From Leucoraja ocellata (taxonomy: Eukaryota): 64,000 nt of DNA. How positions within the stretch are numbered: position 1 is the first letter of the stretch; each line of letters starts with the position of its first letter. Made by a program: the position numbers and the translations under genes. The DNA lies in contig JAWMAR010000023.1 of NCBI GenBank assembly GCA_036785375.1, positions 7,440,001 through 7,504,000 on the forward strand. Direction: 5' to 3'. Of this stretch, positions 11,401 through 14,400 are shown piece by piece. The notes beneath the pieces were generated by a model. That model was not told the origin of the DNA and did not search any database. It was given only the letters and a program-made list of their open reading frames with translations.

Positions 11401-14400
11401 TATTGTATATCATAATGTACATTATCTTATATTATACAAAGATGATATCTACATCATTATTATTGAAAATAATGATATTGATATCTTTGTATCAATATAA
11501 GGAATACAGTTAACTCACTTTCTCTTCTTCCCTCCCTGTATAATCAAACAGACTACCATGGGACGGTGATCATTCATGTCATGGGTTTGATACTGGAGGC
11601 ATTTTTGGTCTGGTGATAAACGGAAACGTTGTATTTTGGACTGAGCTTTCTTTTGTTTCACAGGCTTTAAGTATTAATCTGTACTCTGCAGATTATGGCA
11701 GGCGATTGTTAGACACGGCCATGAACTTTAACTTGGATCCAAATAGTGGGCAACCAGAACAGGTAAGTGTGTGACTGGCCTGATTGCAGGCTGGGGAACT
11801 TGTTGGGAGATGGGGGTGGGTGACAGGGTGACCTTAGGAAGCAAGCAGCTCTGCGTTAGAATTTGGTTGCTGGCTTTGTGTTTTGTGAATTCCGGGCAAA
11901 GTGGATGATTTACTGAAATGATGCATGGGGGGAAATCGTGGAATTATGACGGCTTTGCAACATATCCCTGAAATTATCACTTGGGGAACCTAGTTAGTTT
12001 GTGCATTTTGTAGAACAACATAGGAAGACGCACAGGCTGCAGCTACAGATATGTCATTGCAGAACTGTTGAGATCTATGGTGTTCTTGCATACATATAAT
12101 AGGATCAATGGGAACATTCCTGTTTCAATGATGTATATCTGCAGTGAATCTTTGCTTCTTCTTGAGTGGAATCTCACATGATCCTCTTTTGCTCTCAGCT
12201 CTATATTCAGGCTTTCCTGAAGAAAGATGATTCTGTTGGGTATCGTGCTCTGGTGCAGACCTTTGATCATGCGTTAATCTTCATCCAACAACCAGGTGTG
12301 TCAAATGGTCGAGGAAAGGAGGGGGCTGATGAATAAATACAGTGCCCTCCATAATGTTTTGGACAAAGACCCATCATTTATTTATTTGCCTCTGTACTCC
12401 ACAATTTGAAATCTGTAATAGAAAAAAATCACATGTTAAATTGCAAAGTGTCAGATTTTAATAAAGGCCGTTTTTATACATTTTGGTTTCACCATGTAGC
12501 AATTACAGCAGAGTTTATACACAGTCACCCCATTTTAGGGCACTATATATACACTATACTGTCTACATCCTTCTCAAAACCAAATTACCATTTCTCATCC
12601 ACTATTTTCACAGGTCGAATTATTTGGACCCGAGATGAGGCATTAGCAGAAGTTGTTACCATGGAGATGGTGGATTTGCCTCTAACAGGAACACAGGCTG
12701 AGCTGGAGGGTGAATTTGGAAAGAAAGCAGGTACTGTGGAATGCTCAGCAACTCAACTGCTACTAACTTCCTAAGGAGAGAGTAAGGAACACTTAAATCA
12801 TACATACATTTGATTAAGATTGAAGAGAAAATCTGGTTCCTCCATTTTGAAGAGCCGATGAATTGTTATTGACTTTAGTTAATATTCACTTCCTGGCTGA
12901 CAGTGTTCATCTACAGTTTAGTAACTAATAATATTAGATACTTTCCTTAACACATTAGAAGGAGAATAGTATGTGACAGGTGGTCAGGATCCTGTGAACT
13001 ATGCATCCACTAATCACTGTGAACACTAATGTGCACCGTGAGGATTTATGAAGCTGGAGTATGACATGGTGTGCAGCTGTGTTAGAAAGCTGGGCTGTTT
13101 CCAGAGTGTTGTCAGCTTTGCCTGCTGCTTTGTGCCAATCGGAAGTGAATGTGTAGTTAATATGGGACTGGATTGGCAATCACGAGCTAAAATACGACAG
13201 TGGGAAGTGTGAGGAGTTTAACAAATCTGGTCATTTCTGGAACTGCTCCAGAAATGGGTGAAAGCTGCTGGAGGGTGGGCAACAAATTCTGAACTGCAAG
13301 AGCGGATTTTATAACATTGGTTTACTTTGGCACTTGATTGTCATCAGTGATGTTGATTTTAATTTAATTAGCATTTTTCATATTGCAAAAATCGGTAACG
13401 TTTTTCATAGGAGTCAAATGAGAAAATGAGAAGGTGCTGCTTATTTACTGCACCAGTGTATATTGCATAACACTAGCACTCTAAATTTATCAACAAGACG
13501 CGTTCCCTTTGGAACTATTGGTGCACCATGGTTAAAAATCTCTGATACAGCCATTGCAGAATAAAGCCTAGAATGCCTAGAGCTGTTCAAAAGTTTCATC
13601 ATAATGTATTCACATCCTTCACATTAAGTTTATTTGTAATTGTGATGCCAACATTGGGATGGGAATACTACTCGTGGTTTACGCTGCTTGTTCAACACAT
13701 GACTGAAATGCTGCTTTCTTTATTAATGCTGCTGTGGAGCCAGCTGCGCAAGGTAACATGTTTCATGCATAGTTTTGTTGTTCTGTCTTTTATTGGAAGG
13801 TGCAAACCTATTTTTGCATGTCCATTAAGGGGGGAGATTTCTTTTGGTTACATATATGCTCGAGGGCTGAACTGATCTGCAAGATCCCTCTTCCGTAAAC
13901 GGTGAAATTCAAGGATTTGCATCTCTGGTATTTAACCTGCCCGAGAGAATGCAACTAACTAGCAGAATAGAGGTGGGAGAACCCATGTTTAGTTTATTAA
14001 TGTCACGTACCGAGGTACAGTGAAAAGCTTTTGTTTGTGTGCCATCCAGTGAAACAAAAGACTATGTGATTACAGTCAAGCCGTCTCCGTGCACAAATTA
14101 AAGGTACATTTTATGTAAATCTGATTTTAAAATAGTTCAAAAGTCTCCAATAAGGTAGATGGGTGGTCAGGATCCCACTCCAGCTGATCAGAGGACCATT
14201 CAGTCAGTTTCCTTATAACAGCTAGGAAGAAACTGTCCCTCAATCTGAAGGTATGAGTTTTCAAACTGCCTCATGGGAGGGGGGTGAAGAGGGAATGACC
14301 AGGGTGAGTGTATTCCTTGATTATGCTGGCAGCCTTGCCGAGGCAGCGTGAAGTGTAGATGAAGTAAATGGAAGAGCGATTGCTTTGTGTGATGGTCTGG

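Follow-up and report, generated by a model that had tools for sequence, protein, structure and literature searches.

A 9-nt microexon (CTGCGCAAG; positions 13744..13752 on the + strand of the 64-kb window, i.e., the whole stretch of DNA analyzed) resides within the EMC1 gene of this skate, and RNA reads confirm that it is real and expressed. The exon encodes Ala-Ala-Gln, and its inclusion keeps the frame, giving KKA-AAQ-DG. The decisive evidence is provided by the inclusion reads, 22 of which were detected in a single RNA run (X23); isoforms bearing the same AAQ insert are present among RefSeq proteins. The skate microexon is very likely the ortholog of a vertebrate neural microexon that has already been catalogued, as judged from gene, length and insert. 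Taken together, we consider it probable that this is a real alternative exon with a known vertebrate ortholog, controlled in neurons and endocrine cells by SRRM3/4 via UGC motifs, whose insert in the brace linker of the protein would shift client engagement.

The EMC1 coding exons (∼23) extend from approximately 2162 to 27996 on the + strand, as located by a tblastn search of the window with skate EMC1 (P0123) and by the Pfam EMC1 domains. The microexon is located in a phase-1 host intron of 2732 nt (12731..15462, +, GT..AG), whose skipping junction was observed in all four RNA runs (X1, X2, X23 and X24). The upstream constitutive exon (12614..12730, +) ends in phase 1 (...GKKA, G|) according to both the sequence and the spliced reads and contigs, its 3' end reading ...AAA GCA G|GT. 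The downstream constitutive exon (15463..15662, +) encodes the brace/crossbar helix, as indicated by reads, by alignment to human EMC1 chains and by helix 470-500 of the structural model, and matches Leucoraja erinacea EMC1 at 100% identity, which marks the host as a skate-like ray. A second genomic copy of this stretch (L002, G000:C882:40739-43983; 98.6% identity) is probably the other haplotype. This copy is unchanged over 13577-13771, including the splice signals, and carries a 5-nt deletion 20 nt past the microexon, the splice signals and the TGCATG motif described below being retained.

Several other elements were observed in the window. A single UBR4 exon, identified by its match to human UBR4 chains, is located 3' of EMC1 at 56426-56593 (+), and the EMC1-then-UBR4 order is also that of the human locus. 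A UBR4 intron contains a short GC-rich tandem repeat (57000-57060; unit ∼21 nt). LINE-type reverse-transcriptase fragments (Pfam RVT_1) occur at 37259-39376 (+) and 33169-33579 (-), and a repeat-derived stretch at 13943-14450, 200-700 nt downstream of the microexon, draws many unrelated reads.

The RNA runs compared, four of the 24 listed, were X1 and X2, available as contigs, and X23 and X24, raw reads from one study with coded tissues (5% of each run read). The source organism of the RNA displayed no differences from the window in the two flanking exons and ∼2% in one intronic contig, and is therefore the same species or a close relative. The first-pass annotation had anticipated splicing at the junctions 12730/13744 and 13752/15463. 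In X23, 22 reads with 14 start places join position 12730 to CTGCGCA, followed by AG and the next exon, which corresponds exactly to the microexon. In total, 22 of the 29 junction reads in X23 include the microexon and 7 skip it, whereas all 58 junction reads in X24 skip it (0/58 inclusion). The resulting PSI is 0.76 (95% interval, 0.57-0.90) in X23 versus 0 (0-0.06) in X24, in counts to which mates may contribute twice. The difference is significant when computed on reads (Fisher p 7e-15), and compares one sample against one. The X1 and X2 contigs contained the skipped form only; contigs prove presence, not absence. Inclusion is switch-like between samples (22/29 versus 0/58, with skipping in the X1 and X2 contigs), as is typical of the SRRM3/4 (eMIC)-dependent class of microexons.

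A chance look-alike, or a cryptic exon lacking regulated use, was also considered. Loose candidate sites do arise at a rate of ∼2 per shuffled intron, but the 22 inclusion reads and their 14 start places rule this reading out, and the presence of the same insert across jawed vertebrates also argues against it; its probability is negligible.

The distribution of the insert was analyzed in 144 vertebrate proteins with a readable junction. The majority (126) lack an insert, while four contain AAQ, six AIQ, six AVQ and two other inserts. The 16 proteins with AAQ, AIQ or AVQ represent Chondrichthyes, lungfish, a bird, monotremes, a marsupial and placentals; the insert is thus conserved at the protein level across the major lineages of jawed vertebrates, as had been proposed at the outset. 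The AAQ form is found in Amblyraja radiata (isoform X1, XP_032904150.1), Chiloscyllium plagiosum and Scyliorhinus canicula (isoform X1), identical in sequence and junction to that of the skate, in plain annotations that carry no regulatory description. AIQ or AVQ occurs in lungfish, a blackbird, echidna, platypus, Tasmanian devil, fruit bats and baboon. The KKAAIQDG isoform, which the first-pass annotation had cited, does exist, in lungfish, echidna, Tasmanian devil, the blackbird and baboon. The named proteins included no identifiable EMC1 from lamprey or hagfish. A RefSeq AAQ isoform is on record for 3 of the 23 cartilaginous-fish species, and is absent from the records seen for the other 20. 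Annotation thus often misses the microexon, and the earlier view that it is easily overlooked stands to this extent; it is not undiscovered, however, given the RefSeq isoforms in these three species and its presence in splicing catalogues.

The catalogues contain 9-nt EMC1 events in human (HsaEX0022280), mouse (MmuEX0008514) and zebrafish (DreEX0029850). Inclusion of the human exon reaches a PSI of 0.47 with GFP and 99.3 with SRRM4 (PMC7935315). The zebrafish exon, which is paired with the human event in PMC12626424, displays PSI values of 77.8 in neural tissue and 74.0 in endocrine pancreas, as opposed to 13 or less in 11 other tissue groups (3 in muscle), with a dPSI_eMIC of -61.9 (PMC12626424). 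The mouse exon is filed as "ASE" and not as eMIC-dependent in PMC8797185. EMC1 is also listed among 13 human/chicken neural microexons in PMC12871342, its function given as "unknown". One supplement file of PMC12868881 has no Emc1 row, and the accessible portions of PMC11450717, PMC7917623 and PMC11506464 contain nothing on an EMC1 microexon. The orthology match is based on the gene, the 9-nt length and the baboon (primate) isoform; we infer the placement of the catalogued events between human residues A477 and D478. The microexon itself is therefore already known and catalogued, and its occurrence in the skate confirms only that it is at least as old as the ancestor of jawed vertebrates. Because the PSI in zebrafish endocrine pancreas is 74, inclusion of the catalogued exon is neural and endocrine, not strictly neuronal. 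The original assignment to the SRRM3/4-type neural microexons is supported by the published SRRM dependence of the human and zebrafish exons, although the description "neuron-specific" was too narrow.

The sequence surrounding the skate microexon is consistent with this assignment. All of the sequence claims made initially hold, i.e., the 9-nt exon in a phase-1 intron, its reading as KKA-AAQ-DG, the UGC motifs and the TGCATG ∼63 nt downstream. The splice sites are canonical, with CAG directly before the exon and GTAACA directly after it, the latter 5' splice site (13753..13758, +) being used in the inclusion reads. On the basis of its sequence and of the splice sites used in reads, the exon conforms to the frame-preserving cassette exons of 3-27 nt that characterize the eMIC-dependent class. 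A motif scan predicted a candidate branch-point region (TGACTGAA, 13700..13707, +) ∼40 nt before the exon, and detected no AG from 13641 to 13737. The polypyrimidine tract (CTTTCTTTATT, 13714..13724, +) is set back from the AG, at -30 to -20. One UGCUGC (13709..13714, +) is found on its upstream side, and a second (13727..13732, +; -17 to -12) lies between the tract and the 3' splice site, where the eMIC class carries its UGC motif. The latter is likely the SRRM3/4 enhancer; a role for UGC motifs in microexon splicing has been described (PMC12871342; bioRxiv 2024.09.17.613571).

A candidate rule (YAG, 3-27 nt in frame, a good donor, at least two UGC and a pyrimidine run) was devised after the site had been seen. 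The microexon is its sole match in the host intron and also on both strands of the 64-kb window, while 5 of 500 dinucleotide-shuffled introns yield a matching site. Since the rule was made post hoc, its uniqueness is only supporting evidence. Under the same rule no other microexon was detected in the EMC1 introns (21,242 intronic bases), and RNA folding around the microexon displayed no excess (z, +0.59).

SRRM_C (eMIC) exons were detected at three places in the genome, representing two genes, of which we take the one on C8 to be SRRM3-like and the one on C132 to be SRRM4-like. The last exon and UTR of the C8 gene are covered at a depth of 3.2-3.8 in X23 and 0 in X24, and its eMIC-exon bin at 1.3 versus 0, values that are low in depth and derive from one run pair with coded tissues. 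This read pattern, from one pair of runs at low depth, fits SRRM control of the microexon; SRRM3 expression is a marker of tissue that is neural or endocrine, and not of neurons alone. In the assembly, the SRRM3-like gene is represented by two near-identical copies (L003 and L004). The SRRM4-like gene has its last coding exon (L009, ∼4810-4520 on the - strand, G000:C132) out of frame, with the exon start, next conserved motif and RS-rich tail each lying in different frames, which reflects either an assembly error or a broken gene.

In this light, it is highly probable that SRRM3/4 promotes inclusion via the UGC motifs in the neurons and endocrine cells of the skate, with SRRM dependence and neural identity presumed from the evidence given above. 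A rival driver would be RBFOX acting at the downstream UGCAUG, or another factor, with SRRM3/4 in a secondary role. A candidate RBFOX site, TGCATG, is indeed found 63 nt after the exon (13815..13820, +) and is also present in L002, and a TGCAT occurs at +14; the hexamer is nevertheless expected by chance at ∼0.06 per 100 nt (i.e., ∼6% of the time), so that it constitutes weak evidence alone. Muscle is a tissue that contains RBFOX1/2. The muscle PSI of 3 in zebrafish and the fall of 62 points upon eMIC loss (PMC12626424) argue against RBFOX as the main driver, as does the ability of SRRM4 alone to move the human exon from 0.5 to 99 PSI (PMC7935315), although the failure of the mouse exon to be classed as eMIC-dependent in one data set is in its favor (PMC8797185). 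RBFOX-driven inclusion is thus improbable, and control by SRRM3/4 is preferred.

In alignment to human EMC1 chains, the insert falls between A477 and D478, and between F473 and M483/R487. The human-labelled (non-yeast) EMC1 sequences in the alignment all lack it. An AlphaFold model built from 74 sequences (pLDDT 90; TM 0.87-0.90 against seven human EMC1 chains, and 0.82 against an eighth) replaced an earlier model from 27 close sequences, which was unusable (pLDDT 50). It contains a helix at 451-459, a short helix at 462-467 that holds the AAQ (pLDDT at the insert, 72-74) and a long helix at 470-500. The long helix is the brace (also termed crossbar), which lies on the lumenal face of the membrane (PMC7292650; PMC7785296). 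Placement of the insert at the start of the brace helix was not found in the literature searched. The skipped linker seems to be constrained in length, since 30-32 residues separate the DLP motif from the brace Arg in 42 of the 44 representatives (of 150) that could be measured. We take G471R, six residues upstream of the insert site, to be a patient allele. The same substitution appears as a construct in PMC7785296, and in that study the combinations F473Y+R487K and M483A+R487H+Q491N alter client levels. The brace lifts and shifts by 6-10 Å and contacts CaV1.2 via its C-terminal end (bioRxiv 2022.10.03.510667), which is the end opposite the insert.

These features suggest a possible route from splicing to function. 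Inclusion extends by three residues the linker that immediately precedes the brace helix; the longer tether might alter the up/down balance of the brace or its packing on EMC5, and the resulting shift might tune how multipass clients, CaV channels among them, are handled in excitable cells. That the three residues affect EMC activity, with a longer tether biasing brace position and tuning multipass clients, is a tentative proposal that we place somewhat below an even chance. A regulated exon could also be nearly neutral for the protein, its small residues being tolerated in a surface linker and its harmless in-frame inclusion maintained by entrenched splice signals. This would be in keeping with the differing inserts across phyla (AAQ/AIQ, DFTSFER, DHGST), with one study in which brace mutants yielded no clear sign of client binding (PMC12317982) and with two zebrafish studies on the phenotypes of single-microexon deletions, the title of PMC12626420 referring to minimal impact. 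On the other hand, A-x-Q has been kept from sharks to primates, the length of the skipped linker is nearly invariant, several phyla carry a microexon in the same intron, and neighboring residues alter client levels (PMC7785296). Near-neutrality is accordingly conceivable, but falls short of an even probability. If inclusion does alter the brace, neurons would run an EMC isoform unlike the solved human EMC1 sequences aligned here, which would be relevant to how ion channels are assembled and to the reason that EMC1 variants lead to neurological and retinal disease. The location of the insert at the start of a mobile, client-contacting helix is one of two parts of this analysis worth following; the other is the match at the same intron in other phyla.

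Drosophila EMC1 (CG2943) contains a 21-nt exon, DmeEX0001409, which is eMIC-dependent and pan-neuronal (PMC8797185), and head inclusion of the exon (head-enriched ME335) has been observed by RT-PCR (PMC8042270). In all four Drosophila species compared, isoforms X1 and X2 differ by DFTSFER at the alignment column of the skate AAQ, and we infer from its length that this peptide is the product of the 21-nt exon. Among 18 fly-like ORFs, those that read through on the donor side continue with G and then E, K or M (6/6), and those on the acceptor side with T or L and then G-D (5/5), the other seven being uninformative since they start inside the exon. The fly intron is thus in phase 1, inside a Gly codon aligned to human D478. 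The same intron position and phase are therefore shared by vertebrates and protostomes, as expected for a bilaterian-ancestral site.

Isoform pairs in other protostomes differ at the same place: in the bug Rhynocoris (P0320) by seven residues (LDHGFSS), with a G to A...S change as expected for phase 1; in the damselfly Hetaerina (P0318) by six (SDLGVS); and in the ribbon worm Lineus (P0355) by DHGST. All three damselfly isoforms (P0318, P0180) contain ∼12-14 further residues at the junction, possibly from a second small exon. The ribbon-worm, bug and damselfly inserts have in common a D-[HL]-G-x-S-like core that, although too short for scoring, may hint at common descent within the protostomes. 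Isoform pairs of Manduca, amphioxus and Schistosoma exhibit no difference at the junction, and the echinoderm, mollusc, tick, millipede, crustacean and moth proteins examined have no insert. Longer linkers occur in Lingula X1 (+4) and amphioxus (+3). The exons are alike across phyla in neither sequence nor length (9 nt and A-x-Q versus 15-21 nt and DHGST, DFTSFER or LDHGFSS). A same-intron match between fly and vertebrate EMC1 was not found in the literature searched, although the supplements of bioRxiv 2026.09.05.749416 may list it. Of the published comparisons, PMC8797185 names four same-position fly/mouse exons, EMC1 not among them, and its mouse set lacks the EMC1 exon; bioRxiv 2026.09.05.749416 describes two bilaterian-ancestral exons and much same-position convergence, the term "EMC" being absent from its main text.

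The earlier proposal of a gnathostome origin agrees with the insert in sharks, skate and tetrapods, but microexons at this intron also occur outside the gnathostomes. We slightly favor the view that the vertebrate, insect and ribbon-worm microexons are independent gains within a single old intron (type I convergence) over common ancestry across phyla. The vertebrate and protostome inserts have no sequence likeness and lengths of 9, 15, 21 and 18/36 nt, the echinoderm, mollusc, tick, millipede, crustacean and moth proteins examined lack an insert, and recurrent neural exons are common (bioRxiv 2026.09.05.749416). Weighing against independence are the frequency with which microexons go unannotated (20 of the 23 cartilaginous-fish species), the shared core of the bug, damselfly and ribbon-worm inserts, the 21-nt length of both the fly and bug exons, and the longer Lingula and amphioxus linkers. 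The opposite view is that the slot itself is bilaterian-ancestral, a single phase-1 intron read by the eMIC splicing factor in flies and vertebrates, which would lengthen the brace tether and yield an EMC tuned for ion channels in neurons and endocrine cells; the comparison of fly and mouse would have overlooked it, given that SRRM dependence was not assigned to the mouse exon. We regard this as unlikely, yet if true the EMC1 exon would join those of APBB and MADD among the ancestral neural microexons.

With respect to known systems, the skate exon most closely resembles the vertebrate EMC1 neural microexon (HsaEX0022280, MmuEX0008514, DreEX0029850 and the chicken exon in PMC12871342), which is located in the same gene, is also 9 nt long and in frame, and is likewise restricted in inclusion. 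Tetrapod isoforms, including that of a primate, share with the skate the three-residue insert at KKA|DG, the skate exon encoding AAQ as opposed to the AIQ or AVQ of the catalogued type. The Drosophila exon DmeEX0001409 shares the gene, protein position and intron phase and is regulated by the eMIC domain, but differs in its 21-nt length and unrelated sequence, DFTSFER. A neural microexon at an equivalent vertebrate/insect intron is also found in the bilaterian-ancestral cases of APBB1/2/3 and MADD and in type I convergent exons such as spg/DOCK3/4 (bioRxiv 2026.09.05.749416). The EMC1 insert displays no cross-phylum sequence conservation, and it would thus fit type I convergence unless the gap is filled by intermediate taxa.
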